Source: Verrucomicrobiota bacterium
GTDB lineage: Bacteria > Verrucomicrobiota > Verrucomicrobiia > Limisphaerales > SIBE01
Direction: 5' to 3'
DNA: 64,000 nucleotides
NCBI GenBank assembly: GCA_016871535.1
Contig: VHCZ01000005.1
Location: 530 to 64,529, forward strand
Within the stretch, counting starts at the first letter, position 1, and the number at the start of each line of letters is the position of its first letter. Positions 19,533-36,355 of the stretch are shown here, piece after piece. Made by a program: the position numbers and the translations under genes. The notes under the pieces are model-generated. The model did not search any database, was not told the DNA's origin, and saw only the letters and a list, made by a program, of their open reading frames with translations.

Positions 19533-22500
19533 CTACGACGGGTCCGCTTCTTGAAGCGCCTGATCGAGCATTGCCGCTGCTCTCGGCAGCACTTTGCGCA
19601 GCGCGGCAATTTGAGAATTGATCTTCTTCAATCCCTCCAGCGAGCGCGCGGCCAAGAGCCGCCGATACCAATTGACGAATTCCACGCTGAGCTGCGCTTC
19701 GTTTTCCGAGGGCGCGAGGGACGGAGTTTGGCCTTCCGCAAACTGGCAGATCAAGACCGCGGCCCGCGCGGAGGGTTCCTGAGCGTGGGCTGAATTCTGA
19801 AAGAACGGCAGGGCTTCGCTGAACCGGCCCCCCTTCAGCAACGCTTCGCCCCGCAACGCCCGGATCCCCGCGTGTTGCGGGAAATGCTTCAAGGCTTCCT
19901 CCGTCCAATCCACCGAGAACTCGGCGAACTCGGGTTTGCTGGCCGAGATGAAACTCCCCAGGTGCCAGAGATGCTCATCGTTGATGCCTTTGGCCATGAT
20001 GCCATGCAAGGTCTGCAGCGCTTCGAGTGAGCGGTCTGTGCGGTGCAGAAAATGGGCGTAATCGTGCAGGACGCCCGGCGTTTCGGGTTCAATGACGAGC
20101 GCCTGCTTGAAATGAGCCTCGGCCCGTTCGTTTTCTCCAATGACCGCGCAGCACTGGGCGAGCAGATGGTGCGGTCCCGCTTTGAACACTTGATGACACG
20201 GAGGCGTCAGCGTCGGCGCGTCGCGCTTGGCCAGACACGCTTCCAGATGCGGAATCGCCTCAGCGGCGCGTTTCATCCGCATCAGCGCGACCGCGGCCAG
20301 GAAGTGCATCGACGCGGTCGGCCCTGCGTCGCCGGCCAGACGCGAGGTCATGACATCCAGCACCTCGCCGAATAATTCCGCCTTGAGCGCGTGCACTCCG
20401 TAAATCGTGAGCAAGCGCTCGCGGACCTCAGGCAAAATGGACCCGGCCGGGTGCGGCGCCATGATGCGGAACGCGTGCCGGTATTTTTCCAGGCCTTCTT
20501 CCAGCCGCCCGTCGTTGACCAGGTCGAGTCCGTAATTCATGAGCAGCGCCGCTTCATTGGGCAGTTCCTGGACGGCTCGTTCCATCAGTCTGAGGTTCCG
20601 CTGGATTTTCTGCTTTCGTTTCACCAGGCCGGGATCGTAGCCATAGTGCATGATAGTCGCCGTGCCCATGGTCGCGTCCATGCCCCATTCGGCTTTGCGC
20701 GCAATCACGCTGGCGTAAATCTGCTCGTGAACCCGGCCGACGAAAAACAGGGCAGGCGCGTTTCGGAACAACCGCGGCACGTACGTCACGGAATCCGCCG
20801 CTTCATGAATGTTGCAGATCGGGATGCGGTAACCGAGCACGTTCGTCGCCGCCATGTCTCGGGACAGCTTTTCATGGCTTTCCTTCGGCAATTCTTCGTC
20901 CGCATCCAGAATCAAAACCCAATCGCCGCGCGCGTGCTCGTGCCCGGCGTTCCGCGCGTCGGCAAAATTGTCGTTCCAGTCAAAACGATAAATCTCCGCC
21001 CCGTGCTGCCGGGCAATCTCCACGGTGCGATCTTTGGATCCGGTGTCCACGACGACGATCTGGCTGGCGATGGGTTCCACCGACGCCAGGCACCGTCCGA
21101 TGTTGTCCTCTTCGTCTTTGGCGATGAGGCAGACGCTGAGGCGAGGTCTGTCGGGCCACTTGGGGAGCGGCGTCCAATTGATCTGGGACCGCTTGCCCTC
21201 GGCAGCGGTTTTGAGCGAAGCAAACACGCGCCGGGCCATTTCCCAGTTCGGTGTCATCCGAATCAAACGTTCCGCGCAAAGGAACGCCTGCCGTTCGTCG
21301 TCTGCCGACAGCGCAATCTCGATCATCTGCAAGTAGGCGTCGGGATGGAAAGGACGGAGTTTGATGGCTTCCAACGCCGCTTTCCACGCTTTCAAATACT
21401 TCTTCTGAGCCGCGAAATCTTGGGCCTTCTTCAACGAACCGATCAAGCCGGCGGCGGGTACTTCGATGGCCGGTTGCGGCGTCGCAGTCTCAGTTTTCGG
21501 GCGTTGAGTTAACCCAGCATCGCCTTCCCCCTCACCCCGGCCCTCTCCCCTGCCAGACTTTTCCGCAGCAGGGATCAGCCTTCCCTCTCCTTGGGGAGAG
21601 GGGCAGGGTGAGGGGAATCGTGCCACCGATTGCTCGCCGCGATTTGGATTCACGGCTGCGCGACCTGAATCCGGCAAAGTGATTGGACGAAGCCTAGTGG
21701 GATTCTCCGTCCGAGCCGCGAGGGCCTGCAAGCGTTTCTCGGCCGCTGCGGCCGCATGGGTCCAGGTCCATTTGCTGCGGACATGGACACTGGCGCGTTG
21801 CCCCAACAAGCGAGCCTCCGCAGGATGGGAGGCGACAAATTTCATCCGGTTGCTCAGAGCCTCCAGGTCAGGTTCCAGCAGCCAGCCTTGGCCCGCCAAT
21901 TCCAAATCTCCGACCTTGGTGCCGATGGATTGGCGCCGGGCGGGGATCCGGTACGCGAACTCTTCCGTCGCGAAATCGTCCGCCGCGCCTCCTGCCGTGA
22001 CGATCACGGGCAAACCGCACGCCATCGCCTCCAGAATCGGCAGCCCAAACCCCTCCCCGCGGTACGGATGAACCAGGCAATCGCAAGCCGTGTAGAGTCC
22101 GGGCATCTGTTCGGGCGCCAGGTCCTGGTTCAAGTAAACGATTTCCGGCGCGTTCGGATGACTCTGAAGCTGCCGGATCTGCGCTTCCAGCGTTTGGCCT
22201 TGGTAAAACGTGTTGGCGCCAAAATCCTTCACCACCAGGCAAACGTTATCCGCGGCCGTGAAGGATTTCAGATAAGCATTCAGCGCCAGGTCCGGTCCCT
22301 TGCGTCGAATCGTGCCGCCCACGAACAGGAACCTGAATTTCCGTGCCGTAGAGCAGGCATCCTGCCTGCCCTTCATTCCGTCTCGAGAGATTGAACCAGG
22401 CAAGCTGGAAGCCTGCCCTGCCTTTGGCAGCAAAAGCGGCGGCGCGTTCGGATGGAAACGATCGGGATTTGTCCCGTTGGGCACCACATAAACCTTCTCA

Positions 22501-23024
22501 GAAGGGATGCCGCTTTGAATGTAGCAATCTCGGACGAACGCACTTGGCACCCAGATTTCATCGACGCGATCTCGCAACACCGCGACCCAATCCTTCGGAA
22601 TGCAGCCAAATTCCCAGGGTTGAATGATCACCCAGTGACCGTCCTGGGGCGGCGTTGGGTTGAACGGCCATTGATGGCGCAAGTGAACGTGCGCCGGCCG
22701 GGCGAGAGGCGCGCGAACGCGACCGGCGATCTGGCCGAAGCGGGGATCAGCCTCCGGGCCGAATTGGTCGGGCTCGAACGGAAGAATGGAGAGGTCGTGG
22801 CCCCCCTCGATCAACTGGAGGCACAACTCGCGATTGATCAACGCCAGCGAATGGTGAACGAACTGCGACCCCTCCCAGATGATCGACAGCTTGCGTTCGG
22901 GGTGGCGCAGAGTTGCACTCTGCTGTATCGCCGATTTGGAATCGGAGGCGCGTGGACTGTTCGGAACGGATTCGAGTTTGCCGGCGCTTTGCAGGCTGCA
23001 ATCCTGCGATACGGCAGATTGCAA
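19533..23024 (-). CDS. multidomain glycosyltransferase: GT4-like, short TPR, GT2, C-terminal TPR array (1163 aa)
   Basis: GT4-type C-terminal half (LVHPYRGEGFGLPILEAMACGLPVIVT). GT2 (LSVCLIAKDEEDNIGRCLASVEPIASQIVVVDTGSKDRTVEIARQHGA...LILDADEEL). Multiple TPR-like helices at the C-terminus. No ATG start: the track uses TTG 23024. Contains in-frame repeat elements at 22348-22421 and 21527-21615. Confidence 0.85.
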   Translation of the reverse strand: MQSAVSQDCSLQSAGKLESVPNSPRASDSKSAIQQSATLRHPERKLSIIWEGSQFVHHSLALINRELCLQLIEGGHDLSILPFEPDQFGPEADPRFGQIAGRVRAPLARPAHVHLRHQWPFNPTPPQDGHWVIIQPWEFGCIPKDWVAVLRDRVDEIWVPSAFVRDCYIQSGIPSEKVYVVPNGTNPDRFHPNAPPLLLPKAGQASSLPGSISRDGMKGRQDACSTARKFRFLFVGGTIRRKGPDLALNAYLKSFTAADNVCLVVKDFGANTFYQGQTLEAQIRQLQSHPNAPEIVYLNQDLAPEQMPGLYTACDCLVHPYRGEGFGLPILEAMACGLPVIVTAGGAADDFATEEFAYRIPARRQSIGTKVGDLELAGQGWLLEPDLEALSNRMKFVASHPAEARLLGQRASVHVRSKWTWTHAAAAAEKRLQALAARTENPTRLRPITLPDSGRAAVNPNRGEQSVARFPSPCPSPQGEGRLIPAAEKSGRGEGRGEGEGDAGLTQRPKTETATPQPAIEVPAAGLIGSLKKAQDFAAQKKYLKAWKAALEAIKLRPFHPDAYLQMIEIALSADDERQAFLCAERLIRMTPNWEMARRVFASLKTAAEGKRSQINWTPLPKWPDRPRLSVCLIAKDEEDNIGRCLASVEPIASQIVVVDTGSKDRTVEIARQHGAEIYRFDWNDNFADARNAGHEHARGDWVLILDADEELPKESHEKLSRDMAATNVLGYRIPICNIHEAADSVTYVPRLFRNAPALFFVGRVHEQIYASVIARKAEWGMDATMGTATIMHYGYDPGLVKRKQKIQRNLRLMERAVQELPNEAALLMNYGLDLVNDGRLEEGLEKYRHAFRIMAPHPAGSILPEVRERLLTIYGVHALKAELFGEVLDVMTSRLAGDAGPTASMHFLAAVALMRMKRAAEAIPHLEACLAKRDAPTLTPPCHQVFKAGPHHLLAQCCAVIGENERAEAHFKQALVIEPETPGVLHDYAHFLHRTDRSLEALQTLHGIMAKGINDEHLWHLGSFISASKPEFAEFSVDWTEEALKHFPQHAGIRALRGEALLKGGRFSEALPFFQNSAHAQEPSARAAVLICQFAEGQTPSLAPSENEAQLSVEFVNWYRRLLAARSLEGLKKINSQIAALRKVLPRAAAMLDQALQEADPS
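21527..21615. repeat. G/C-rich imperfect palindromic element inside the 1163-aa ORF
   Basis: Arms CCCCTCACCCCGGCCCTCTCCCC (21527-21550) and GGGGAGAGGGGCAGGGTGAGGGG (21593-21615) are reverse complements with 2 mismatches. Translated in frame as ...PSPCPSPQGEGRLIPAAEKSGRGEGRGEGEG... Confidence 0.7.
22348..22421. repeat. 74-bp double-hairpin element (copy D), in frame inside the GT4 domain of the 1163-aa ORF
   Basis: gtagagcaggcatcctgcctgcc...caggcaagctggaagcctgccctgc is homologous to the 77-bp copies at 25017, 25734 and 26481. It encodes AGQASSLPGSISRDGMKGRQDACST. Confidence 0.75.
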
Positions 23025-23062
23025 ATCTGCGCTACGCGCAAGTTCGGGGCCGTCCTCAGGCG

Positions 23063-26000
23063 CTACCGTTTTTTTTTTCGCCGGGCAGGCTTGCTGGAGG
23101 AAGGCGGAGGAGAAGACGGCGGTTTAGTGAGCAAATCAAGATTCTCGCGGGCGACCGCATTCTGCGGATCGATCTGGAGAACTCGCTCGAAAACCATTTT
23201 CGCCGATTCCGCGTCGCCGGTTTTGTAGAAGCAAACCGCCAGCGGCAGCATCACTTCGGTGTCGTCCGGAGCCTGGAGAAGGATCTTGTGGTAGGTCTGG
23301 GCGGCGTCCTTGAAACGGTTCTCTCGAAAATTCAGGTCGGCCAACAACCGCAGCGCCGGGCGGTAGGTCGGATCATTTTCGAGCACGCGCCCAAGCACGG
23401 CTTCAAATTCGGGAATCCGTTCCAAACCCAGCAACGCCAGGGCCAGGCGAGTCTGGTAGTCCGAGGAATTGGGGAGCATCTGGGTTGCCCGCTGCAGTTC
23501 CTGGCAACTCGCGCTCAAGTCGCCCTTCTGGTAAAGGACACTGCCGAGGGCCGCGCAAATCTCGTGACTGTCGGGGCTCGCCTTCAGCGCTTCTTGGAGC
23601 GCCGCCGCAACCCCGGCCAGGTCTCCCGCAGACCACAATGCATTTGCCCGGGAAAGTTGCTCATCCAAAGCGCGCGTGCCGGCCTTCTCGATCGCGGAAT
23701 GCGGAGCGCGGAGTGCGGAATGGTCAGACTGCCCACTGACCTCTGACAACTGATCACTGGCCACTGATAACTGTCCACTCCCCTTCGCCACGCGAAGGTT
23801 GTCCAGGAGCACCTTCAGATTCTCCCTGGCCAATGTGTGTTCGGGTTCCAATTCCAGAATCCGCTCAAAAATCATTTTGGCGGTCTCGTAATCGCCTGTC
23901 TTGTAGAAGCAAACTGCCAGGGGCATCAGAACCTCCAGATCGTTCGGAGTCTGCTTGAGCATCTTCCCGAAAGCCTGGGCGGCGCTCTGGATCTTGCCTT
24001 GGTTGAAATCGACCTGCGCGCGGAGTCGAAGGGCGTCGAGGCAGTTCGAGTCCAATTCCATCGCCTTGGCCAACGCGGATTCAAATTCAGCCAATTCGCC
24101 CAACTGATAGTGGCACAACGCGAGTTGCACCCATTTGCCGGGATCGGACGGAGCAATCTGCACCAACCGTTCCAAATGAATGCGCGCCTGCCGCAAGTCG
24201 CCCAGTTGGAAACAAACTGTGCCGATCGCGGATAGAATCTCCGGAGAATCTGGCGCGAACGCCAGCGCCGCCTTGAGCGCGTCGCGCGCTTCGGCGAGGT
24301 TTTGCGACCCCACCGCCGCATCGGCCTTGGTCAACCACTGGTTCAACTGGGCAATTTCAGATTTCTCGGACTGCTGAGCCTCGGCAACCGACAACTGACC
24401 ACTGGCAACTGACAACTGGCCACTGTTCTCGCTCTTCTGGTCGAGCTGATAAAGATTCTCCCGCGCCGTGACATTGTTGGGGTCCATTTCGAGAACCCGG
24501 TTATAGACCATGCGAGCGGACTCGAAATCCGCGCCGCGATAAAAGCAAAGCCCCAGGCTCAGCAAGGTCTCCAGGTCATCCGGCTGGCGTTCCAGCAACT
24601 TGGCGTAGGCGCGGCCCGCGTCGCGCACCCGGTTGTTCTCCAGGTTGGTTTTGGCGAGAAACTTGAGCGCTTCGCGATGGTGCGGATCGATCTCCAGCGC
24701 GAGTCCGAGCGCGGCCTCCATTTCCTCGATGCGATTCACCTTCAGACAGGCCATGGCCAGCCGCGTATAGGCATCGACGTCGCGAGGCTTGATTTCGATC
24801 AATCGGCGGAATTGCTCCCGGGCCGCTTCGTAGTTTCCCTGGGTGAAGTGCAGGCTGCCCAGCGCCGAGCGAATCTGCGGGTCGCGCGGCGCCAATTCGA
24901 CCGCCTGTTCGAGAGTCTCCAGCGCGGCCTGCCGATTGCTGACCTCGCAGAAGAAATTCGCCTGGTCCATCAGTTTCGCCAAAGCCGACTGGTCGGTTGC
25001 CACTTGCGGTGGAGGAGTAGGGCAGGCATCCTGCCTGCCTTTCTTTCCGTCATCAGAGACCGTTGATTGAGGCAGGCTGGAAGCCTGCCCTACGTTCTCG
25101 ATTGCGGATTGAGACGACTGATCACTGACAACTGACAACTGATTACTCTCCCTGCCTTCCGACAGCTTCTGACGAATGGCCACCAGGTTCTCCTTCGCGA
25201 CCGGATCGTCCGGGTGCCGTTCCAAAGCGCGCTCAAAGACCAGTCTGGCCGTCTCCAGGTCGCCATCCTTGAAAAAGCAGACGCCGAGCGGCAACAGCGC
25301 GTCCAGGTCGTCCGGGTGCCGGCTCAAGATTTTCGTGTAGGCCTGAGCAGCATCCTTGAGGCGACCGTTCTGAACATTCAAATCGCCCAAAAGCTTCAGC
25401 GCATCGCGATGGTGGGGATCAATCTCCAGCGCCCGGCCCAGCGCGACTTCAAACTCCTCGATCTGATCGAGCTTCAAGTTAGCCAGCGCAAGCTGCACGA
25501 AGACCGCCGGATCGCGCCGGTTCACTTCGGTGGCCCGCTGTAGATACTGATAGGCCTGCTCGAATTCATTCAAAGCGAAACAAATCGCCCCGGCCGCGGC
25601 GAGCGCCCTCGGCTCATCACGCTCCAACCGCAACGCCTCGACCAACAGTTCTTTCGCTCTGGCGAGGTTCCCCCGCTGGTGTTCGGTCTGCGCCTTTTCC
25701 AGGAGACCATCGATTGCGGAGTGCGGTTGAAGAGCAGGGCAGGCATCCTGCCTGCCTGTCTTGCCCTCTTCCAAGACCGTTGATTCGGGCAGGCTGGAAG
25801 CCTGCCCTACGTTCTCCATCGCGGATTGTGGATTGCGGATTGCGGATTCGGGCGACTGATCACCGCTCACTGACAACGGATCACTGACCACTGATAACTG
25901 CCCCACGGCCATCCTCTGCCGGATCACATCGAGATTCTCCTTCGCCACGGGATTTCCGGGATGCTTCTCCAGCACGCGCTCGAACACCAGCTTCGCCGTC

Positions 26001-29000
26001 TCAAAATCGTTCACCTTGAAGAAGCAGACTCCCAGGGGCAACAACGCATCCAGATCGTCCGGATGGCGGCTGAGGATTTTTGTGTAAGCCTGGGCGGCGT
26101 CCTTGAACTGGTCGTTTCGAAGATTCAAATCGGCCAGCAACTTCAGCGCGTCGCGGTGGTACGGATCGAGGTCCAGGGCGCGTCCCAACGCCTGCTCGAA
26201 TTGATCGATGCGCTCCAGCCGGAGATGAGTCAAGGCGAGTTGAACGAACGCGGAGGGATCCGAAGGCATGATTTCCGTCAGCCGGCCGAAGTGACGCTGC
26301 GCCGTGATGAAATCGTTCAGAGCGAACGCAGCCATTCCGAGTTGTTCGATGACTCGAATGTTGTTCGGCGCTTGCTGCAGCGCTTGCTCCAGGATTTGTC
26401 GCGCGGACGAGTGATTCCCATTCTGGCTCTCCCGTTCTGCGCTCGCCAACAAGCGTTCGATTTCAGAGTTCGGCTGAAGAGTAGGGCAGGCCTCCTGCCT
26501 GCCTTTCTTACTGTCTTCAGAGATCGTTGATTCAGGCAGGCTGGAAGCCTGCCCTACGTTGGCCTGATTCAGTGCGGAGTGCGGAGTGCGGAGTGCGGAT
26601 CCAGGCGACTGATTACTGATTACTGATAACTGATCACTGACCACCCCCGAAGCCCTTTCCTCTATCTTCTTCTTGATCGCCGCCAAATTGTTGGCTGCGA
26701 GCGAATGATTCGGGGAGATTTGCAGAATGCGCTGATAGACTTCCCGGGCCGTTTCCCATTCATTCGCCTTAAAGAAGCAGGCGCCCAATCCGAGCAATGA
26801 GTCCAGGTCCTCCGGATTGCGCGAGATGATCTTCACGTAGGTCTGGCCGGCGTCCTTGTAACTTCCCTGCTTCAAGTTCAAATCCGCCAGGAGTTTGAGT
26901 GCGTCGCGGTAGTTCGGGTCGAGTTCCAGGGCGCGGCCCAGTGCCGCTTCGAAATCCTCGATCTGGTCGAGTTCAAGGTTCGCCAGGGCCAACTGGACGC
27001 GAACGCCAGGATCGTTTGGAGCCAACTCTGCGGCCTTTGCAAAATGCTCTCTGGCTGTGGCGAACTCATTCAAGCTGAACAAAATCGCCCCCAGCGTGGC
27101 GTGGATTCGCGGAGAGTTGGGCAGGTGTTGCAGCGCCTCCAGCAAGACGGAGCGGGCATTGGCGAGGTTGCCTTTGCGGTATTCGGCATCGGCTCGTTCC
27201 AGTAGCCGATTGGCCTCGGGCGATACAGGACCTATCTCTAAGTCCGGTTTCGGGTTGGAGTCGTGCGCGTCGTTCATCGAATGCACCGATTCTCGTTTAT
27301 AGCTGGGAATGCGGCCCTGTCGAGCCAGTTCTTGGCCAATTGCGGAGCCTTCGGGTGCGGAGTGCGGAGTGCGGAGTGCGGATTCTGACAACTGATTACT
27401 CCCCCCTGGCAACTGGCAACTGGCAACTGACAACGGATCACTGACCACTGATTCAGGCGAGAGGCGAGGGGCGTCAGGCGTCTGAGGGCGAACGGATTCT
27501 GACAACTGATCACTGACTACTGATAACTGATTACTGGTTTTGCCTCGCAACTCCTCCGCGATCTCCGCCAAGCGCCCGGCCGCAAGCTCCGCCACGCGAT
27601 CCCATTGCCATTTCTCGACCATGTCCTGCCGTGCGCGCGAGCCAATCCGGGCCATTTCCTCCGGCTGTTCAACCACGCGGGGCAACAGTTGAGCCAGATG
27701 GTCTCTCGAAGGTTCAGCCCAGCGATGCCCTCGGAAATACTCGATTTCGGATTCCGGGCCCACGTCGGCCATCTTGTAATCCAGCAAGATGCTGTTCCGC
27801 TCGGTCATGAACTCGCGCGTGCCACTCCATCCGGTCGCAATCACGGGCAATCCGCATGCCATGGCGTCCATCTGCGGCCTGCCCCAGCCTTCGCCCCGCG
27901 ACGGCGCGACGTAAGCGGTGGCGGCGGCGTAGAGATGCGGCAAGTCTGCTTCGGAGATGGGACAACCCAAAACAATAATCGGAGCCACCTGAGAGCGATT
28001 CAACTTCAAGATGCGGCTCAGAAAGGCATCAATGAACAAATTGATCTCGCGCGAAACATCCGGCGCCTCGGAGGCATTCAATGGATAAGCGCGCAGCACC
28101 AGGCAAACGTCGTCCTGAGGTTTGAAAGCGCGGGCCCACGAATGAAGGAGCACGTCCCAACCTTTGCGATAGCTCCATTCGAAGATCGATAGAAAGACGG
28201 TCTTTCGTCTTCCAGGAATTGGCAGAGGATTCAAACCGGGTCGAAAGCGGTCGGTATCGACTCCCCCCGGAATCTTGACCAATCGTGCCGTCACGCCGGA
28301 GTTCCTGAAGGACTCCAGCGAGTGCTCCGTCGGCACCCAGATTTCATCCATCCGATTGCACTTTTCGACCCACTCCTGCGGCAGCCGATCGGTCTCGAAC
28401 ATGGTTCTGCCAATGCAATAGGCAGCGCCCGGCAGCCGATCCAGGCAACGGCCTGAAACGTGAACCACCGCGGCAAACGGAGAAGGGATGTTCTTCTGCA
28501 GCAGGGCATCGAGTTTGTCGCGATCCGCCGAATCGATCTTGGCACGGCAACCTTCGGAAGCCGGGGCGAAGGAACGAATCGCCAGATTGATATTGTTGCT
28601 CTCCAGATTCAGGACAAAGTGCCGGGCTTCCTCAGCATAGCCACTGAAGCTGTAAAACAGGCCGTGCCACAGAACAGGCATCGCCGAAGCGGCGGACGAA
28701 GTCAGGTTTTCTCCTGCGCCACTTCCGCGCGCCGGCGAATCGACGGGCCGCACGAGGGGCTCGAAGGGAGGCGAGGCGTAAAGTGAACTCTGCTTCGTGT
28801 CCCCGCCAAACGCCAGCAGCATCTTGCTCCACAACTCCCTCGCGGCTGGATGCATGGGATCGAGCCTCAGGCACATCCGGACGTAATCCGCGCATTCCGC
28901 GTAGCGCTGAACTCGCGCGGTCTCGACCGCTTTCGCGAGCAACGCGTTCGGAGGCGCATTCTGCAATTCCGGGTCTTCCCAGGGGAACTTGAATTCGGCC

Positions 29001-32000
29001 TTGCGAGCCAAGATCACCCTTCCCACCTGGGTGTAACGCCGGTCATTATGGGTCACGGTACTGAATGGGCAGCACCGAATGGAAAAGCCTGCCGTCTTCA
29101 GGCGCTCGGAAAAATCGACATCCTCCAGTTGGTAGAATCCGCGTTGACCATCCCACTGCACGAGATCGGAAACGGCAGCCTTCATAATACAGAGGCCGCC
29201 GGTGACGTAAACGCGTGAATCGTATTCCGTGTATTCCAACAAGCGTTGCTCCGCTGCCGAGCCCGCCTTGGCCCAGTCCCAGAACCGCGTGCCGTCCGTA
29301 TTCAGAAGTCGAACACAGAGCACGTCGTAATTCTCCCCAAAATTGAGCAGCCCTTCGTAGAAATCCGCATGGAAAATCATGTCGTCGTCCGCGACGACGA
29401 GGCGGTCGTACTGGGCTCGCCGGCAAAGTTGATTCCGCATTTCCCCAAGCCGTCCGGCATGAGCCACCTCGGCCATCGGCACCGCGATGACATCGTCGAA
29501 ACCGGCTGGCACATCGCCGCCCACGAGGATTTCGCATTGAGGAATCTTGAGCGCCCGTATGCTTTGAATTTCCTCGCGCAGCTTGGCGGGGCGCTTGCCG
29601 TTCGTGATGATGCAGAAACTAAAACCCGGCGCGCGTTGTTTGGCGCACTGAGGCGCTGACGAATCGACTCGTTGGACGTTCACGGACGAAGCGTCGGCCA
29701 GCTTTTGCGCCGCGTCCGGTTCGTCCAAGAGGCTCTTCTCTGCCTTCTGCGTGCGCGGCGGCGTGGGCGGATGGAAGCGAGCCTTGGCATCGAACTGCAT
29801 GCTCCAGCGCTGGCCGAACAACTGCACGTTTTCAGGCACATGCTGCAAGCGCCCGGCGCTTTTGGCCTCGTGGTGGTACACGACCGTGCGCGGCTCATAA
29901 ACGACCTTCCAGCCCGCCGCGCGAACCCGCAGGCACAAATCGACATCCTCGCCGCCATTCTTGAAGCTTTCGTCAAACCCGTTCAACTCGAAGAACAGCG
30001 TTCGCGGAATCATCAGGCAAGCGCCGGTGACGATGTCCAGCTCGCGAAACACGTTGACTTCGGGCGCGGAAGCCGGGGCGAAACGATGCACGTGATCCAG
30101 CATCTGCCCGACCAACCCAAACCCCGCGTGCTGCACCCGTCCATCCGGATACAGCAGTTTCACGCCGACCACTCCGACTCGCGGCAAGCGCGCCGCCCAG
30201 ATCATCGAGTCGCACCAACCGGGCGTGACCCGCGTGTCGTTGTTCAGGAACAGCAACAAATGTCCGCGAGCCTCCAGCGCGCCTTGATTGCAGCCGCGGG
30301 CGAAGCCCACGTTTTGTGAATTCAGGAACGCGCGCAGCCGTCCGGCCTGTTGCTCGCGGCGCAAATAATCAGCCGTTCCGTCCGTTGACGCGTTGTCCAC
30401 CACGATAATCTCGCCCTTGGCGGGATCGATCGTTTCGTAAAGGGAAGCGAGGCACTCGCGGTTCAATTCGAGATTGTCGAAAGTCAGGACGATGATGGAG
30501 ACGAGCGGCAAGGATTGGATGGCTCCCTCTCTTCCACTCGAAGAGAGGAGCGGGCTGAGGAGAGGAGGACTATCGTGCTGACTTTTCCACTCTCCTCGAT
30601 CCTCTCCCCACTCATGCTTCGCGGGGAGAGGAGGAAGACCTACGGTCTCCGCACTCCGCACTCCGCATTCCGCAATGGTTGCCGGTTCCCCTCCGGGGAG
30701 GGGTGAAGCCGTGGGTTCACTGTTCGGCAACGAAGCAGATTCTTGTGAAGCAGCTTGAGCCTCGGCGGCCTGACGGCTTGCCAGCACTTCTCGTTTCATT
30801 CCTTCCAGGTACGCTTTTCGAGCCGCTTGCAGTTCCGGCCGCCCCGACACCAGATGTTCCGACTTCTCATAGACGCGCGTGGCGGTTCGCAGCATATCCG
30901 CCCGTTTGCCGCTGTTCATGCTCGTGCCGTCGAATCGCCAGCGAAACTCGCACGTGACTTTGGGAATATGGAAGAACTGGAAATGGCGCGACATGCGGAT
31001 CCACAAATCCCAATCCTCATGGCTGGTCAGCGATTCGTCGAATCCCCCGGCGGTTTCCCAGCACGCCTTTTCGTGCATGAAGCACAGCACGGGCACGAAA
31101 TTGCCCACCAGGATTTCATCCCGATCAAAGTCGCGTGAATACGGAACATCCCGGCGAACGATTTCATAACTGCCGCCCTTCTTCATTTGGTGGGCGCGCC
31201 AGGCATCTGTGTAGGCGACTTTCGCTCCGCTTTTTTGCAGAAACTCGTGCAGCGTTTGGAGATGGTCGGGAAGAAAAAGGTCGTCGTCGTCCAGATACGT
31301 GATGTATTTGCCGCGCGCCTGGTTGACGCCCGTATTTCTGGCCGCGGCCAGGCCGCGGTTCTGGAAGTGTTGGAAGTAACGGATCTTTCGCGAAGCGTTA
31401 AGGCCTTCGATCTGCTTGGAGACATCCTGCCCGGCGTCGTTGACGACCAGGATTTCAAAATCCTGGAACGTCTGGCTCAAGATGCTCTGGAGCGTTTCCG
31501 CGAGCATCTCTGGCCGGTTATAGGTCGGCACGATGACGGAAATGGCCGGCCCCTGGCTCTGGGCCTTCGGGTTCCCTTCTCCGCGCAAGAACCTCCGGGC
31601 AATCTCCACAATGTCCTTCGGATAGAGGTCAGGATGATTGGCGATAATGTTGATGCGGAGGATCGTGTCGCGTTTCAGCGCATCCTGAAAAAGCCCATCC
31701 GCTTTCTCGCGGTAGTGGAATAAGGGTTTGGCAATTCGCTTGCCCACGAATCCTTTTTCTCCGCAGCCAATCCAGAAATCCCAATCTTCGTATCCTTTGA
31801 CATTGGTCTTGTATCCGCCCACCGTTTCCCACGCCTGGCGGCGAAAGAGGGAACAATAACAAAGATGGTTCGCGTGGATCAGAACTTTGAAGTCGTACTC
31901 GGCGGTCGGTTGAATCCACGAACGCTCCCGGTTGAAAAAGATGGCATCCGTGTAAGCAATCGCTACGTCCGGGTTGGACTCTAGAATTTGCACGCACTCC

Positions 32001-35000
32001 GCCAGGAGGGTCGGCGCGATGCGGTCGTCAGCGTCCAATGGCAGGATGAATTCGCCTTGTGCTTCGGCAATTCCTCGGTTGCGGGAGATCGCCGGCTGGC
32101 CGGAGTTCGGCTGGTTGATGAGCTTGATTCGGTGCGTGGAATACCGGGCGCGAAGGCTTTCCGCGACCTGCGCGCTGTCATCAGTGCTCCCGTCGTTAAC
32201 GATGATAATCTCAAAATCCTGATAGGTCTGCTTGATGACGCTATCGACCGCCTCCGGCAGGTAGCGCTCGTAATTGTAGCAAGGGATGACCACGGACACT
32301 CGGGGCGGCGATTTCATGGGTTGCACCGCCGCTTCGCCCGATACGGCGCTCGGCAAAGCAATGGACCTTGTCGCTCGCGCCTGGTTCGCTTGGCGTTGAA
32401 ATTCACCGCGAAGCTCCGCCATTCGCGCGGACACACCGGCAGGCATCTCGAAATTCGCCTTGATGGGTTCGCCTTGGATCACTGACGTCCACGCTCGAAT
32501 AACGACGTTCCAACTGAAGCACGCCCCCCAGTGATCGTAGCCGCACTGGCCCAGCGCCTTTCTCAACTCCGTCTCTCGCAGCAACGTCGCAATAGCATTT
32601 GGAAACTCCGCCAGCGGCACGATGACGCCGCCGGCATTGTCGTGGACCGCGCCGCAGTTCGGTGTCGCCACCCATGCCTTCGCGTGGCTCATCGCTTCCA
32701 GAATGACGACGGGCGACGCTTCGGCGCGCGAGGGGAGCAGGATCAAATCCGCCGCTTCCATCGCTGCCGAAACCTTCTCCGGCGGCAAACCCGGAATCCA
32801 GATGACTTTGGGATCGCGTTCGACTGCCTCGCGAACAGCCTTGCCGTAATTCTGTTCCATCGTTGTGCCGCCGATGATGGCCAGGCGCCATTCTCCCGGA
32901 AGATTCTGCAGCGTCTCGAACAACCCCAGGTGATTCTTCACGCGGAACAGGTTCGCCACGTGCAGCAGCAAGGGCATGTCCTTAGGGATGCCGTGTTCGC
33001 GCCGGAAATCTCCCGCTGGCGCAACGACGTCAACCGCATTGGGGATGTAAGCGGGATCGATCTTCTCTTCCTGGAAGTAGCGATCCCCCGCCCCATGCCG
33101 TGTGATGGACACGACCGCGTGCGCTGATTGGAGAACAGAGCGGAGCGATTCACGAAACTCGCGATCGCCTCGCCAGTTGTGGAAGGCCGCATCGTTGATC
33201 ACCGGCTGGAGGATCAGCCGAAAACGGCGCGGAAGAGTCAGCCCATGAAACGCCCAAAACAAAAGGTTGGAAGGATCGGAAATCGCAATGCACGCGTCGT
33301 AGCGCCCGGAACAAACGAGTTCGCCCAATTGCACCGTGGCGCGCGGAAGGGTCGTTCCCGAAATCTTTTCACGATCCAATGAGATCACGCGCATTCCCAG
33401 ATGGTCGTCCGTTTGCCGCGCCTCATTGGAGTAGGCGGCAACTTCCACATCGAAATCCAGGAAGGACAAACGCCGGCCCAGGTTTTCGACGATGCTCTCG
33501 ACTCCGCCGACCGAAGGGTAGAAATGGGGACAAGCCAGGAGAACGCGCGGACGAGAAGTCCGGTTCGCCGTTTTTCGAGCCTCGACAATCCGGCTCGAAG
33601 CGCTTTGCACGCGCGGCCAATCGTAGAGCCTGAAATGGTTGACCGTGATTTGGGCCTTGAGAAGTTCGCGATTGCGATTCGCTCGATCGAGCAAGCCCGA
33701 GCCGTGTTTCCGATAGAAAAAGAGCGGCTCAGGGATGAGCCGCCCCTCCCAGCCTTTCTCCGCGAGGCTGATCCAAAAGTCCCAGTCTTCGTAGCCTTTG
33801 ACATTGAGTTTATATCCGCCAACCTCGGCCCAGAGCCGCTTTCGATAGAGCGCGCAATAAGGGACGCAATTGTCCTGGAGCAGATTTTGGAGCGTGAACT
33901 CGCCGCACCGCCAAATGTCCTGGCGATCGCCGAAATGCTGCAATTGAGAATAGACCACGCCGACCTTGCCGTCGGATTCGATGAGGTTTACGGCCTTTTC
34001 CAGGAAGGTGGGCGCAATTTTGTCGTCGGGATCCAGGGGAAGGACATATTCGCCTCGGGCCGCGTCGATGCCGGAGTTCCGCGCGCTCGCGGGCTGGCCG
34101 GAGTTGCTTTGCCGGATCAACGTGATGGGAAGGTCCTGATAGGTGTCGATAAGCTGCCGGGCTACGCTGGCCGTATTGTCCGTGCTGCCGTCATCGACAA
34201 TGATGATCTCGAAATCGCGGCATGTTTGCCGAGCAACGCTTTCGACTGCCTCCGGCAGAAAGTGCGCGTAGTTGTAGCAGGGGATGACGACGCTGACCTT
34301 CGGGGGCGGGATACTTTCCGCGTCAGCTTCAGGCCGGCGGGGCATTCGAGACTCTTGCGTCTGGAACAGATCGGAGCGGGCTTCATCCATCGAAGGCGCA
34401 TCGGCTTTGTGCAGGCTTTGCGGATCGCTACCCCCGCCGGTCAACCACGTCACTACAGCGTGTTTCGTTGCGCCGCAGACCGGCTCAAAAAACTCGCGCG
34501 ACTTCTGCTCTGACCAAGGCCTCGGTTGGATGGATTGACGGTTCGCCGCGAGCTTCTGAACGACGGCTCTCAACTCCGAAGCGGTTCGACATGTGAAGTC
34601 ATACTCTGCAAAGGGCATGACATTTTGATCGACAAAAAATTCTGAGAGCAACCCAATCGTGGTCCGGCCCGCATGAGCCGCCTCAAACTCGACCGAGGAT
34701 CCGTTGCAGATGACAACTTCGCTATCGACGAGCGCTTCGCTCGCGGACCGTTGCCCCACGATCATCTCCTCCGGCAGAGACGAAAGCTGCGCAATCCGGA
34801 GCGCCGTCTGGAGAAGTTCCGATTCGCGCCCCATCCGGGGATGAAACCGAATTTCCAGGCGGACATTGCGGATGGCATGGAGCGCTTCGATCGTCCGCGT
34901 GAGCATTTCCAGAGACGGCCCCGCTTCAATCACGAGGCACAACAAGACGCGCAAATGCGGGCCGGAAGATTGAGGAAGCGCGGCCGCCTTCGCGCCCGCC

Positions 35001-36355
35001 GGTTGGGTTAAGGCTTCAAAACGAAAAGCTGGCCAGACCGACGTTCTGCTTTCAGAGAAACCGTATTCGCGGAACATCCGCTGCCAATACTCTCCGTGAG
35101 TGGCCAGGCAGTCCGGAATCTGATTGGCCGTGAAGTCGCTTCGGGAAGGGAAATAGCTGAACCAAAACGGCGGCACCGGGCAATGTTGATAAGCGGTCAG
35201 TTTCGTTGCCGGCAGGAATTCGCGAACTCCTAACCTCAGTCCTTTCTCCCAGGGCTGGTTTTCATACGGATAAATCAAGTTCCCGACGGTGCTGCCCTGG
35301 CCGGCCAGGAATCTGCCGACGTGATAGAACTGCTGGGCAAAAAGCGGGCGCGCGATGCTCTGGTCGTGATGAAACGCCTCGAAGAGAAGCGGAGTCACAT
35401 CGACTCCCTCCAGAATCCACCGGCCTCTGAGTTTGAGCGTGAACTCGAGAAGACGTTGAGCCGTGCTTTCAAAAGCATCCAGATCAACACAATCTTCAAT
35501 AAAGAGACAGGGACCCGTGCCGCGAAAGACACCTTCGTAAATCTTTTCGATCGGATAAACCCAATCGAGTGGATTGACCAGGAAGACGACGCTCCCGCCG
35601 GCCTCCTCCAGCCAAAAAGGCAGAGGCCCGAAAAAGTCGTCTCGGCCAGCGCGGGCGTGCCTGGCGAAACTCTCAGGTTGAATCCAGGACACGAGGAGGT
35701 GATCAATCTGTTTCGGCAGCGCGCCTAAGGGGCGTCCAGCTTTTTGGCGAAGGTTCGCGACCAGTTCCTTCCGAGATCGGAGTCGGCCAATGAAATGCGA
35801 TGCGTGGGCCGCAAATTTGGATTTTTGATTCCTGCGATGCTGTCTGAGGGTTTTGAACAGAGCGCCTGCCTCTTCCTGATTGAAGGAACCCCAAAGCTGG
35901 ACCTCGCACTTTCCAGTCCTGGACGCGACTCTAGACAAGAAAGCTGCCAGGTATGCGTCGTCCACCACGATCAACAACTCACCGTCGATGTCTTCGAGGA
36001 TGCGCGGCAGAGAAAGAGCGGCGCAGAGATGGTAAAAGAGCATGGAAGAGAGCGGGCTTCGTTCGGCCACCGAGGTTGTCGCCCAGCGCAGGTCTGCGAC
36101 ATCCACTTCCACCACTTGATCTAAATTCAGGAACTCGCGCCAGATTCTGGAAGCCGTGGCATTGATATACTGGCCGCTGCAGACGTAAGTCGCGAATCGA
36201 TTTAGCCCCTCCTGTATGGAATAAAAAAAAGCCGCCTGATTCCCCAAATAGGTCCAACTGAATTGTCCGGAGGAGCGGAACCGCTCCAATGCCCGCGCCA
36301 ATTCGCTGGCTTGACTGAACACCACGGTCTTCTTTTTCATCGGATTTATGCCCAT
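23063..36355 (-). CDS. giant multidomain glycosyltransferase (4430 aa): unknown N-terminal domain, 4 GT2, 1 GT-A-like, 2 GT4 domains, six tandem TPR modules
   Basis: Uninterrupted 13,293-nt ORF. GT2 signatures: VSVVIPCYNYAHFLPEAVESV..DPDD (~34300), VSVVIPCYNYERYLPEAVDSV..DADD (~32310), ISVIVPTYNRPEMLAETLQS..DDDD (~31555), VSIIVLTFDNLELNRECL..NNDT (~30510). GT-A-like FSFCIITNGKR..ADDDM (~29625). GT4 signatures near 33550-32480 and 28680-27560 (SRGEGWGRPQMDAMACGLPVIAT). Six paralogous ~190-aa TPR modules span 27240-23110. Confidence 0.8.
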   Translation of the reverse strand: MGINPMKKKTVVFSQASELARALERFRSSGQFSWTYLGNQAAFFYSIQEGLNRFATYVCSGQYINATASRIWREFLNLDQVVEVDVADLRWATTSVAERSPLSSMLFYHLCAALSLPRILEDIDGELLIVVDDAYLAAFLSRVASRTGKCEVQLWGSFNQEEAGALFKTLRQHRRNQKSKFAAHASHFIGRLRSRKELVANLRQKAGRPLGALPKQIDHLLVSWIQPESFARHARAGRDDFFGPLPFWLEEAGGSVVFLVNPLDWVYPIEKIYEGVFRGTGPCLFIEDCVDLDAFESTAQRLLEFTLKLRGRWILEGVDVTPLLFEAFHHDQSIARPLFAQQFYHVGRFLAGQGSTVGNLIYPYENQPWEKGLRLGVREFLPATKLTAYQHCPVPPFWFSYFPSRSDFTANQIPDCLATHGEYWQRMFREYGFSESRTSVWPAFRFEALTQPAGAKAAALPQSSGPHLRVLLCLVIEAGPSLEMLTRTIEALHAIRNVRLEIRFHPRMGRESELLQTALRIAQLSSLPEEMIVGQRSASEALVDSEVVICNGSSVEFEAAHAGRTTIGLLSEFFVDQNVMPFAEYDFTCRTASELRAVVQKLAANRQSIQPRPWSEQKSREFFEPVCGATKHAVVTWLTGGGSDPQSLHKADAPSMDEARSDLFQTQESRMPRRPEADAESIPPPKVSVVIPCYNYAHFLPEAVESVARQTCRDFEIIIVDDGSTDNTASVARQLIDTYQDLPITLIRQSNSGQPASARNSGIDAARGEYVLPLDPDDKIAPTFLEKAVNLIESDGKVGVVYSQLQHFGDRQDIWRCGEFTLQNLLQDNCVPYCALYRKRLWAEVGGYKLNVKGYEDWDFWISLAEKGWEGRLIPEPLFFYRKHGSGLLDRANRNRELLKAQITVNHFRLYDWPRVQSASSRIVEARKTANRTSRPRVLLACPHFYPSVGGVESIVENLGRRLSFLDFDVEVAAYSNEARQTDDHLGMRVISLDREKISGTTLPRATVQLGELVCSGRYDACIAISDPSNLLFWAFHGLTLPRRFRLILQPVINDAAFHNWRGDREFRESLRSVLQSAHAVVSITRHGAGDRYFQEEKIDPAYIPNAVDVVAPAGDFRREHGIPKDMPLLLHVANLFRVKNHLGLFETLQNLPGEWRLAIIGGTTMEQNYGKAVREAVERDPKVIWIPGLPPEKVSAAMEAADLILLPSRAEASPVVILEAMSHAKAWVATPNCGAVHDNAGGVIVPLAEFPNAIATLLRETELRKALGQCGYDHWGACFSWNVVIRAWTSVIQGEPIKANFEMPAGVSARMAELRGEFQRQANQARATRSIALPSAVSGEAAVQPMKSPPRVSVVIPCYNYERYLPEAVDSVIKQTYQDFEIIIVNDGSTDDSAQVAESLRARYSTHRIKLINQPNSGQPAISRNRGIAEAQGEFILPLDADDRIAPTLLAECVQILESNPDVAIAYTDAIFFNRERSWIQPTAEYDFKVLIHANHLCYCSLFRRQAWETVGGYKTNVKGYEDWDFWIGCGEKGFVGKRIAKPLFHYREKADGLFQDALKRDTILRINIIANHPDLYPKDIVEIARRFLRGEGNPKAQSQGPAISVIVPTYNRPEMLAETLQSILSQTFQDFEILVVNDAGQDVSKQIEGLNASRKIRYFQHFQNRGLAAARNTGVNQARGKYITYLDDDDLFLPDHLQTLHEFLQKSGAKVAYTDAWRAHQMKKGGSYEIVRRDVPYSRDFDRDEILVGNFVPVLCFMHEKACWETAGGFDESLTSHEDWDLWIRMSRHFQFFHIPKVTCEFRWRFDGTSMNSGKRADMLRTATRVYEKSEHLVSGRPELQAARKAYLEGMKREVLASRQAAEAQAASQESASLPNSEPTASPLPGGEPATIAECGVRSAETVGLPPLPAKHEWGEDRGEWKSQHDSPPLLSPLLSSSGREGAIQSLPLVSIIVLTFDNLELNRECLASLYETIDPAKGEIIVVDNASTDGTADYLRREQQAGRLRAFLNSQNVGFARGCNQGALEARGHLLLFLNNDTRVTPGWCDSMIWAARLPRVGVVGVKLLYPDGRVQHAGFGLVGQMLDHVHRFAPASAPEVNVFRELDIVTGACLMIPRTLFFELNGFDESFKNGGEDVDLCLRVRAAGWKVVYEPRTVVYHHEAKSAGRLQHVPENVQLFGQRWSMQFDAKARFHPPTPPRTQKAEKSLLDEPDAAQKLADASSVNVQRVDSSAPQCAKQRAPGFSFCIITNGKRPAKLREEIQSIRALKIPQCEILVGGDVPAGFDDVIAVPMAEVAHAGRLGEMRNQLCRRAQYDRLVVADDDMIFHADFYEGLLNFGENYDVLCVRLLNTDGTRFWDWAKAGSAAEQRLLEYTEYDSRVYVTGGLCIMKAAVSDLVQWDGQRGFYQLEDVDFSERLKTAGFSIRCCPFSTVTHNDRRYTQVGRVILARKAEFKFPWEDPELQNAPPNALLAKAVETARVQRYAECADYVRMCLRLDPMHPAARELWSKMLLAFGGDTKQSSLYASPPFEPLVRPVDSPARGSGAGENLTSSAASAMPVLWHGLFYSFSGYAEEARHFVLNLESNNINLAIRSFAPASEGCRAKIDSADRDKLDALLQKNIPSPFAAVVHVSGRCLDRLPGAAYCIGRTMFETDRLPQEWVEKCNRMDEIWVPTEHSLESFRNSGVTARLVKIPGGVDTDRFRPGLNPLPIPGRRKTVFLSIFEWSYRKGWDVLLHSWARAFKPQDDVCLVLRAYPLNASEAPDVSREINLFIDAFLSRILKLNRSQVAPIIVLGCPISEADLPHLYAAATAYVAPSRGEGWGRPQMDAMACGLPVIATGWSGTREFMTERNSILLDYKMADVGPESEIEYFRGHRWAEPSRDHLAQLLPRVVEQPEEMARIGSRARQDMVEKWQWDRVAELAAGRLAEIAEELRGKTSNQLSVVSDQLSESVRPQTPDAPRLSPESVVSDPLSVASCQLPGGSNQLSESALRTPHSAPEGSAIGQELARQGRIPSYKRESVHSMNDAHDSNPKPDLEIGPVSPEANRLLERADAEYRKGNLANARSVLLEALQHLPNSPRIHATLGAILFSLNEFATAREHFAKAAELAPNDPGVRVQLALANLELDQIEDFEAALGRALELDPNYRDALKLLADLNLKQGSYKDAGQTYVKIISRNPEDLDSLLGLGACFFKANEWETAREVYQRILQISPNHSLAANNLAAIKKKIEERASGVVSDQLSVISNQSPGSALRTPHSALNQANVGQASSLPESTISEDSKKGRQEACPTLQPNSEIERLLASAERESQNGNHSSARQILEQALQQAPNNIRVIEQLGMAAFALNDFITAQRHFGRLTEIMPSDPSAFVQLALTHLRLERIDQFEQALGRALDLDPYHRDALKLLADLNLRNDQFKDAAQAYTKILSRHPDDLDALLPLGVCFFKVNDFETAKLVFERVLEKHPGNPVAKENLDVIRQRMAVGQLSVVSDPLSVSGDQSPESAIRNPQSAMENVGQASSLPESTVLEEGKTGRQDACPALQPHSAIDGLLEKAQTEHQRGNLARAKELLVEALRLERDEPRALAAAGAICFALNEFEQAYQYLQRATEVNRRDPAVFVQLALANLKLDQIEEFEVALGRALEIDPHHRDALKLLGDLNVQNGRLKDAAQAYTKILSRHPDDLDALLPLGVCFFKDGDLETARLVFERALERHPDDPVAKENLVAIRQKLSEGRESNQLSVVSDQSSQSAIENVGQASSLPQSTVSDDGKKGRQDACPTPPPQVATDQSALAKLMDQANFFCEVSNRQAALETLEQAVELAPRDPQIRSALGSLHFTQGNYEAAREQFRRLIEIKPRDVDAYTRLAMACLKVNRIEEMEAALGLALEIDPHHREALKFLAKTNLENNRVRDAGRAYAKLLERQPDDLETLLSLGLCFYRGADFESARMVYNRVLEMDPNNVTARENLYQLDQKSENSGQLSVASGQLSVAEAQQSEKSEIAQLNQWLTKADAAVGSQNLAEARDALKAALAFAPDSPEILSAIGTVCFQLGDLRQARIHLERLVQIAPSDPGKWVQLALCHYQLGELAEFESALAKAMELDSNCLDALRLRAQVDFNQGKIQSAAQAFGKMLKQTPNDLEVLMPLAVCFYKTGDYETAKMIFERILELEPEHTLARENLKVLLDNLRVAKGSGQLSVASDQLSEVSGQSDHSALRAPHSAIEKAGTRALDEQLSRANALWSAGDLAGVAAALQEALKASPDSHEICAALGSVLYQKGDLSASCQELQRATQMLPNSSDYQTRLALALLGLERIPEFEAVLGRVLENDPTYRPALRLLADLNFRENRFKDAAQTYHKILLQAPDDTEVMLPLAVCFYKTGDAESAKMVFERVLQIDPQNAVARENLDLLTKPPSSPPPSSSKPARRKKKR
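23069..23078. repeat. homopolymer T10 (A10 on the coding strand) in the last codons of the giant ORF
   Basis: Coding strand reads CGA AAA AAA AAA CGG TAG (R K K K R stop). This is the longest homopolymer I found in the window. Confidence 0.95.
25017..25093. repeat. 77-bp double-hairpin element (copy A) with terminal inverted repeats GTAGGGCAGGC / GCCTGCCCTAC
   Basis: gtagggcaggcatcctgcctgcctttctttccgtcatcagagaccgttgattgaggcaggctggaagcctgccctac. Hairpins GGCAGG-cat-CCTGCC and GGCAGGC-tggaa-GCCTGCC. In frame: VGQASSLPQSTVSDDGKKGRQDACPT. Confidence 0.8.
25734..25810. repeat. 77-bp double-hairpin element (copy B)
   Basis: gcagggcaggcatcctgcctgcctgtcttgccctcttccaagaccgttgattcgggcaggctggaagcctgccctac. 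In frame: VGQASSLPESTVLEEGKTGRQDACPA. Confidence 0.8.
26481..26557. repeat. 77-bp double-hairpin element (copy C)
   Basis: gtagggcaggcctcctgcctgcctttcttactgtcttcagagatcgttgattcaggcaggctggaagcctgccctac. In frame: VGQASSLPESTISEDSKKGRQEACPT. Confidence 0.8.
26572..26599. repeat. perfect tandem heptanucleotide array (GTGCGGA)x4
   Basis: Counted directly. In frame it reads SALRTPHSAL. Degenerate versions occur at ~23693-23722, 25100-25113 and 25818-25850, and in inverse orientation at ~30647-30685. Confidence 0.9.
27355..27382. repeat. perfect tandem heptanucleotide array (GTGCGGA)x4
   Basis: Counted directly. In frame it reads SALRTPHSA. Confidence 0.9.
27406..27454. repeat. heptanucleotide-periodic array (CTGGCAA)x3 then CTGACAA CGGATCA CTGACCA CTGATTC
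   Basis: Counted directly. The same ACTGAYN-type 7-nt periodicity occurs at ~23735-23779, 24384-24427, 25115-25152, 25855-25900, 26606-26645 and 27495-27540. It translates as QLSVVSDQLSV-type linkers. Confidence 0.85.
30601..30631. repeat. G/C-rich hairpin CCTCTCCCC-N13-GGGGAGAGG within an in-frame palindromic linker (about 30520-30690)
   Basis: Perfect 9-bp stem. The neighbouring hairpin CTCTCTT-N7-AAGAGAG lies at ~30526-30548, and an inverted (ACTCCGC)n tract at ~30647-30685. Translated as ...AIAECGVRSAETVGLPPLPAKHEWGEDRGEWKSQHDSPPLLSPLLSSSGREGAIQS... Confidence 0.7.

Follow-up and report, generated by a model that had tools for sequence, protein, structure and literature searches.

Four short palindromic elements lie in frame within two adjoining genes of a Verrucomicrobiota bacterium (assembly GCA_016871535.1, here G000; 6.67 Mb, 460 contigs, 60 % G+C), one of them in the glycosyltransferase family 4 (GT4) domain of a 1163-residue protein and three in linkers between the tetratricopeptide repeat (TPR) modules of a 4430-residue protein. 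They were analysed within a window of 64,000 nt (contig VHCZ01000005.1, positions 530 to 64,529) and by comparison with related genomes, of which G002 belongs to the same genus; contigs are designated by C numbers. All four are probably inverted, REPIN-like doublets of a GTAG-tagged repetitive extragenic palindromic (REP) sequence specific to this genus, i.e., non-autonomous DNA, and their sub-lineage was copied locally within 4.2 kb; this judgement applies to the explanation as a whole. The combination of a GTAG tag, a short G+C-rich hairpin, an inverted doublet arrangement and the absence of target-site duplications assigns the elements to GTAG-type REPs with REPIN-like doublets.

Sequence, reading frame and fold of the window copies

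On the gene strand, all copies share the layout GTAGGGCAGGC-TTCCA-GCCTGCC, a spacer of 31 nt and GGCAGGC-AGGAT-GCCTGCCCTAC. The terminal 11-mer GTAGGGCAGGC (at most one mismatch) occurs nine times in the window, compared to a mean of 0.64 in shuffled sequences, none of which (0 of 100) reached this number. The four copies were first noticed in a sequence-only reading of this DNA, and their coordinates (Table 1) proved correct in every case. Likewise, translation of each copy confirmed the common orientation and reading frame described there, yielding the consensus peptide (V/A)GQASSLP...GRQ(D/E)AC(P/S)(T/A). The linker copies are 87–92 % identical to each other. The GT4 copy has degenerate tags (GCAG...CTCTAC), and the in-frame deletion of 3 nt attributed to it is present as a gap in its spacer. 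Two internal hairpins had also been proposed; they exist as an alternative fold, and the best single-strand fold of each copy is a single long hairpin formed by pairing of its two terminal units. Folding energies range from −25 to −27 kcal/mol for the linker copies (z about −6.5) and amount to −18.2 kcal/mol for the GT4 copy (z −3.5).

Table 1. Repeat elements and host genes in the window
Feature	Position in window	Strand	Description
REP doublet	22348..22421	minus	74 bp; in frame, GT4 domain of the 1163-aa protein
REP doublet	25017..25093	minus	77 bp; in frame, linker between TPR modules of the 4430-aa protein; VGQASSLPQSTVSDDGKKGRQDACPT
REP doublet	25734..25810	minus	77 bp; in frame, next TPR linker of the 4430-aa protein; VGQASSLPESTVLEEGKTGRQDACPA
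REP doublet	26481..26557	minus	77 bp; in frame, third TPR linker of the 4430-aa protein; VGQASSLPESTISEDSKKGRQEACPT
Host gene 1	19533..23024	minus	1163 aa; GT4 (GT-B fold), GT2 and TPR parts; Pfam matches; Foldseek matches to GT4 enzymes
Host gene 2	23063..36355	minus	4430-aa multi-glycosyltransferase protein with a C-terminal series of TPR modules
Heptanucleotide arrays in TPR linkers	25114-25141, 25880-25900, 26571-26598, 26612-26639, 27361-27381, 27502-27536		

Genome-wide distribution of the repeat unit

The underlying repeat unit reads GTAG-GGCAGGC-(TTCCA/ATCCT)-GCCTGCC (23 nt, 7-bp stem). Hairpins with the exact stem number 159, and their commonest outer flank is GTAG or CTAC. With up to three mismatches allowed, the unit GTAGGGCAGGC[AT]TCC[AT]GCCTGCC was found 218 times in the assembly and not once in 2.6 Mb of shuffled sequence. 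Of these, 122 are arranged in 61 pairs whose tags point outward, the opposite arrangement being represented by a single pair, and the other 96 are single. From end to end, the doublets measure 48–296 bp, with size modes at 74–79 bp and 100 bp. Their spacers are mostly unique, except for one sub-family of 14 copies (about 100 bp) with a common spacer. Adjacent to the tag, the outside bases read AAN at 83 % of the ends. Flanking direct repeats (k = 2–9, four boundary offsets) are no commoner than expected by chance, so that target-site duplications are absent.

The family structure, with its 218 units and 61 doublets, agrees with the initial suggestion of a REP-like mobile palindrome. Confinement to the four window sites, named at the outset as a finding that would, together with gene conversion at the fourth, refute this suggestion, holds only for the exact 77-bp variant; the terminal hairpin family occurs throughout the genome. 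Units with at most one mismatch were counted 138, 48 and 109 times in the three members of the genus and 0–1 times in ten other genomes of the same family; across these relatives, which do not represent independent samples, comparison at the sequence level shows the REP family to be confined to one genus.

Insertion site in the GT4 protein

The copy in the 1163-residue protein corresponds to a net insertion of 75 nt or 25 residues (KAGQASSLPGSISRDGMKGRQDACS; protein residues 201–225, window 22350–22424). It was found in none of the 14 orthologs examined, including that of the same genus, and the comparison with G002 was made at the level of codons. Since exactly these 25 residues are missing from 14 of 14 orthologs, the proposal that this copy is an independent insertion is upheld. 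The AlphaFold2 model of the GT4 domain (mean predicted local distance difference test score [pLDDT] 85.9, predicted template modelling score 0.87) retrieved GlgM, sucrose-phosphate synthase, WaaG, MshA and PimA as Foldseek matches. Within this otherwise confident GT-B model, the insert is the sole internal segment with a pLDDT below 50, and it follows the last strand of the N-terminal Rossmann domain and precedes the first one of the C-terminal Rossmann domain. The low score is in part to be expected, because the alignment is gapped at this position. As modelled, the insert is shown to reside in a predicted disordered interdomain linker and hence at a tolerant site, much as the sequence-only reading had supposed for a loop.

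Origin of the window copies

The spacer shared by the four copies is confined to these sites, and because it is found nowhere else in the genome, the copies are taken to form one young, locally copied lineage. The syntenic contig C5 of G002 carries an ortholog of the giant gene in which the same TPR modules are present one-to-one, and none of the three linker elements was found in its corresponding linkers. Duplication of a module together with its linker, initially suggested as a possible source of the three linker copies, is therefore rejected, as the G002 ortholog possesses the modules without the elements; moreover, the elements are much more alike than the module DNA around them, which is only about 45–80 % identical per 60-nt bin. 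The sequence comparison thus places the origin of all four copies in the G000 lineage, later than its divergence from G002, and traces them to one founder that had a private spacer.

The ortholog in G002 has a doublet of its own (HVGQVSGLP...AGRKPALH; C5:80-179, loci L065/L067) in a linker that lies upstream of its first TPR module; no doublet is present there in G000.

The flanks of the GT4 site are not homologous to those of the linker copies, a point in favour of the doublet having transposed as a whole, and it was almost certainly by such an event that an element reached the GT4 interdomain linker. The spread among the three TPR linkers may be due either to repeated insertion or to gene conversion. 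A scenario with one insertion into one TPR linker, followed by gene conversion or unequal recombination between similar linkers to give the other two, is possible, albeit not favoured. It is consistent with the spacer being private to the locus, with the upstream flanks of the linker copies, which are heptamer-repeat tracts ending in ...GAGAAC (76–78 % identity over the nearest 60 nt in two of three pairs), and with their downstream flanks, which consist of TCTTCAACCGCA-like sequence. However, it does not account for the GT4 copy with its non-homologous flanks, the conversion tracts would have to be very short given the sharp drop in identity outside the element, and the REP family inserts de novo at many unrelated sites.

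Doublets inside genes

Genes were called with a home-made codon-usage score, and 18 host genes were checked by means of Pfam and orthologs. A doublet was considered to lie inside a gene if the frame stayed open over 90 or more codons to either side and the codon-usage score was positive on both sides. According to this strict criterion, 25 of the 61 doublets are located in frame within genes, the value for random windows being 43.5 %. Removal of non-independent and doubtful copies left 19 of 55 doublets (p = 0.22 versus random windows), i.e., there is barely any depletion of doublets from coding sequence, and more of it for single units (18 of 96). The predominantly extragenic location characteristic of REPIN-RAYT systems (RAYT, REP-associated tyrosine transposase) is thus not observed here. 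Doublets are free of stop codons in four of the six frames, and those inside genes use just the two frames which avoid TAG (18 and 7 times, respectively). One embedded copy, at C190:8143, was treated as non-coding in view of its weak coding scores and the absence of a homolog in five relatives.

Hosts confirmed by Pfam comprise MutS, UreF, a CofH/MqnC-type radical SAM enzyme, a NuoL-type subunit, GcvP, an XPD/DinG-type helicase, PheS, a polyketide synthase (PKS), CstA, an ATP-dependent DNA ligase, DnaE (with two inserts) and DUF1549/1553 proteins, among others. The inserts were not found in alignable orthologs from four other genera of the family, save for three loops of variable length. Sites without a counterpart in the other genera include those in MutS, the CofH/MqnC-type enzyme, GcvP, PheS, CstA, PKS, the second helicase, DnaE (second site) and DUF1553. 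Presence or absence is ambiguous for the first site of DnaE (C231), the DNA ligase (C201) and the C140 radical SAM gene, since loop length varies in the other genera. At one site only, C96:11432, could the filled and the empty state be aligned cleanly at the DNA level, with a net gain of 153 nt (152+1).

In other genera, the orthologs contain extra segments at the C231, C201 and C140 positions that resemble the inserts in length and differ from them in sequence, which suggests that particular loops have been occupied repeatedly by different inserts. In addition, MutS of G002 (L053, C373:15872-17053) contains an unrelated in-frame insertion of about 190 residues at the position where MutS of G000 has a 100-bp REP doublet.

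G000 and G002 have in common the inserts in PheS, the CofH/MqnC-type enzyme, NuoL, GcvP, a Gfo/Idh/MocA gene, the C140 radical SAM gene and the second site of DnaE. Alignment of the first four between the two genomes revealed diverged spacers in which all insertions and deletions are in frame. G002 lacks the inserts in CstA, PKS, the Fe-S/FAD oxidoreductase encoded on C84, the second helicase, a RuBisCO-like gene and DUF1553. Since the inserts are thus partly common to both genomes and partly restricted to G000, insertion has gone on over time, with old inserts kept in frame.

Retention of the elements for their usefulness, be it as loops in the protein or through hairpins in DNA or RNA that affect transcription, mRNA stability or RAYT binding, would be in line with the maintenance of orthologous inserts in frame since the split of G000 and G002, with the near lack of depletion of doublets from coding sequence (see above), and with hosts involved in replication and repair (here MutS, DnaE, DNA ligase and two DinG/XPD-type helicases), an excess of which is also noted in PMC3733652. 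It is nevertheless improbable: the hosts are unrelated proteins, the spacer peptides diverge freely between G000 and G002, nearly all orthologs do without inserts, the GT4 insert is predicted to be disordered, and selection on the host protein already explains why the frame is maintained.

Candidate transposase

Thirteen matches to PF01797 (Y1_Tnp, HUH/Y1) were detected in the genome. Only one of them, C42:15715-15954, has the present REP units nearby, the other 12 being without any within 3 kb. Doublets at C42:15292-15397 and C42:16030-16132 bracket this match in a 'REPtron' layout. The protein segment displays HVH and SWKSY motifs, and its PF01797 score exceeds the cut-off of the family.

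The complete cassette of doublet, RAYT-like Y1 transposase and doublet (C42:15292-16132; locus L033, ORF 13-2583) comprises about 256 residues, lacks start and stop codons of its own and lies in frame in a DinG-like helicase gene, between ...TSATLATK and YFAKRVGG... of the helicase. G002 has one doublet at exactly this site. G005, which belongs to another genus, has the RAYT in the same position, where it is flanked by copies of a related REP reading VGQASRLSP, and the helicase is uninterrupted in all other relatives searched. The alanyl-tRNA synthetase gene of G000 (C141, locus L035 427-3267) harbours two separate RAYT-like Y1 segments in frame (RRNLPHFERPW... and KRNLPHFEKPW...). Repeated peptide motifs stand on both sides of each segment, and the REP families involved differ from the one described here.

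Proposed mechanism of spread

By analogy with IS200/IS605 and RAYT enzymes, an HUH/Y1 transposase of the RAYT type would recognize the REP hairpin in single-stranded DNA, cleave at the GTAG tag and then copy or insert the element in trans without generating a target-site duplication. The best candidate for this enzyme would be the product of the RAYT-like gene on C42, a gene with doublets of the same REP on either side. Insertions are spread throughout the genome, coding sequence included. Copies arriving within a gene would survive if their net length is a multiple of three, if GTAG is not read as a TAG stop and if they meet a tolerant loop or linker. The load tolerated in this way would amount to 18–51 extra residues, mostly disordered, and surviving copies would be read through as part of the protein.

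Several points weigh against this account. Transposition and RAYT activity are argued by analogy to characterized enzymes. The C42 segment matches the NCBIfam model NF047646 (REP_Tyr_transpos) with E = 6e-19 and 68.4 bits, i.e., below the curated cut-off of 80, and a phmmer search of the segment against PDB gave no match. At the helicase site, G002 has its single doublet and no RAYT despite 109 REP units in the genome; another RAYT may therefore serve the REP family. The boundaries of the insertions are fixed to about 2 nt at best (net 75 nt as 74+1, net 153 nt as 152+1), and the A-A at positions −3/−2 of 83 % of the ends may be part of the unit or else a target preference. Translation of the inserts is deduced from frame maintenance in essential genes. 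Finally, the assembly is fragmented into 460 contigs, and repeats break contigs; the copy numbers given are therefore minimum values, and the proportion of doublets within genes may be too high.

[quoted passage not shown] This origin is very improbable, as no target-site duplication was apparent at any boundary offset tested, the GTAG tag precedes a hairpin, many units are single (96 of 218), most doublet spacers are unique, and no transposase gene other than one of the HUH/Y1 type is flanked by units. A conserved linker or loop peptide of the ordinary kind, with a DNA sequence palindromic by chance, had no observation in its favour and can be dismissed, given that no such segment exists in 14 GT4 orthologs or in the G002 ortholog of the giant protein and that the same DNA termini recur 218 times in coding and non-coding contexts alike.

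Further repeats in the host genes

The TPR modules of the 4430-residue protein are joined by low-complexity linkers composed in part of tandem heptanucleotide repeats (Table 1). These arrays are read in three frames, (CAGTNAT)n resulting in QLSVVSD-like and (CCGCAMT)n in ALRTPHS-like peptides. Genome-wide, 34 arrays of the former type occur on 28 contigs and 20 of the latter on 18 contigs, with none in shuffled sequences; one array adjoins a REP unit on C60. A second palindrome, unrelated to the REP doublets, is present in frame at window positions 21528-21615, in the linker between the GT4 and GT2 parts of the 1163-residue protein (...SPCPSPQGEGR...GRGEGRGEGEG). Its 23-nt arms, CCCCTCACCCCGGCCCTCTCCCC and GGGGAGAGGGGCAGGGTGAGGGG, are 91 % complementary, and the arm motif was found 263 times on 125 contigs.

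Implications

The elements provide a clean and well-dated example of selfish hairpin repeats adding loops to proteins. Three insertion ages can be separated in a single genome, namely inserts specific to G000, those shared within the genus and those absent from other genera, and one sub-lineage is seen in the course of its spread over 4 kb. Among the genes carrying inserts are essential ones (pheS, dnaE and mutS). With respect to annotation, the family accounts for odd low-complexity peptides (VGQASSLP, GRQDACPT, AGWKPAL) in verrucomicrobial proteins.

Tentatively, the whole REP-RAYT system of this verrucomicrobial lineage might even be adapted to life inside coding sequence. Such a reading is prompted by the doublets being stop-free in four of six frames, barely depleted from genes, maintained in frame beyond the genus-level split and locally copied as a whole, and by the transposase, which lacks its own start and stop codons and is read through in the DinG-like helicase at the same site in two genera. 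Should this reflect adaptation rather than passive tolerance, it would represent an intein-like niche without splicing; a search of the literature found no paper describing such a niche for RAYTs.

Comparison with known systems

The GTAG and CGTC super-families of REPs, their dimers and REPtrons were described by Di Nocera, De Gregorio & Rocco (2013, BMC Genomics 14:522; PMC3733652). Intragenic location is a minority feature of GTAG REPs (Table 1 of that paper); more than half of the intragenic repeats are dimers or grouped repeats, encoding 20–30 residues. Among GTAG repeats, the highest intragenic count was recorded for Opitutus terrae (Verrucomicrobia), and many of the host genes serve replication and repair. 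Insertion of REPs in genes has accordingly been catalogued since 2013 for the same phylum, and the present elements do not constitute a new category. The sequence-only reading had considered palindromic repeats that insert into ORFs without disrupting them to be rare and poorly described, which is overstated in view of this catalogue of in-frame GTAG REP singles and dimers and of the Rickettsia palindromic elements (RPE), known since 2000 (Ogata et al. 2000, 2002; Claverie & Ogata 2003; as cited in PMC3733652).

The behaviour of RPEs is similar in that palindromic repeats occur in frame in many unrelated genes, essential ones included, and add surface peptides while function remains intact. 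This resemblance is one of behaviour only: the sequences are unrelated, the GTAG tag and stem found here differ, RPE-4 and RPE-6 are, in the account of PMC3733652, CGTC-tagged and without a dedicated transposase, RPE-1 is longer, and the RPE host is an obligate intracellular alphaproteobacterium.

With the REPIN-RAYT systems (Bertels & Rainey 2011, PMC3116915; E. coli TnpA-REP), the present family shares doublets folding into one long hairpin, restriction to a lineage, a RAYT flanked by its own REPs and the absence of target-site duplication. Classical REPINs, however, are overwhelmingly extragenic and have conserved spacers, whereas spacer conservation is limited here to the 14-copy sub-family of about 100 bp, and the candidate RAYT lies in frame inside a helicase gene without its own start or stop codon.

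A close correspondence exists with the GTAG REPs of PMC3733652, which likewise combine the GTAG tag with a stem of 6–9 bp, frequently form inverted dimers with often variable spacers of 20–100 bp, are organized in REPtrons as RAYT genes flanked by REPs, and include dimers within ORFs that encode 20–30 residues, with hosts enriched in replication and repair proteins and tRNA synthetases. The REPs of O. terrae stem from the same phylum and differ in stem and loop sequence, reading VGPALAAG and GTGVPPV instead of VGQASSLP. In contrast to the GTAG REPs catalogued so far, the family described here has a very high intragenic share, about 35–41 % of doublets and near random expectation, and one of its sub-lineages, marked by a private spacer, is present in four copies made within 4.2 kb.

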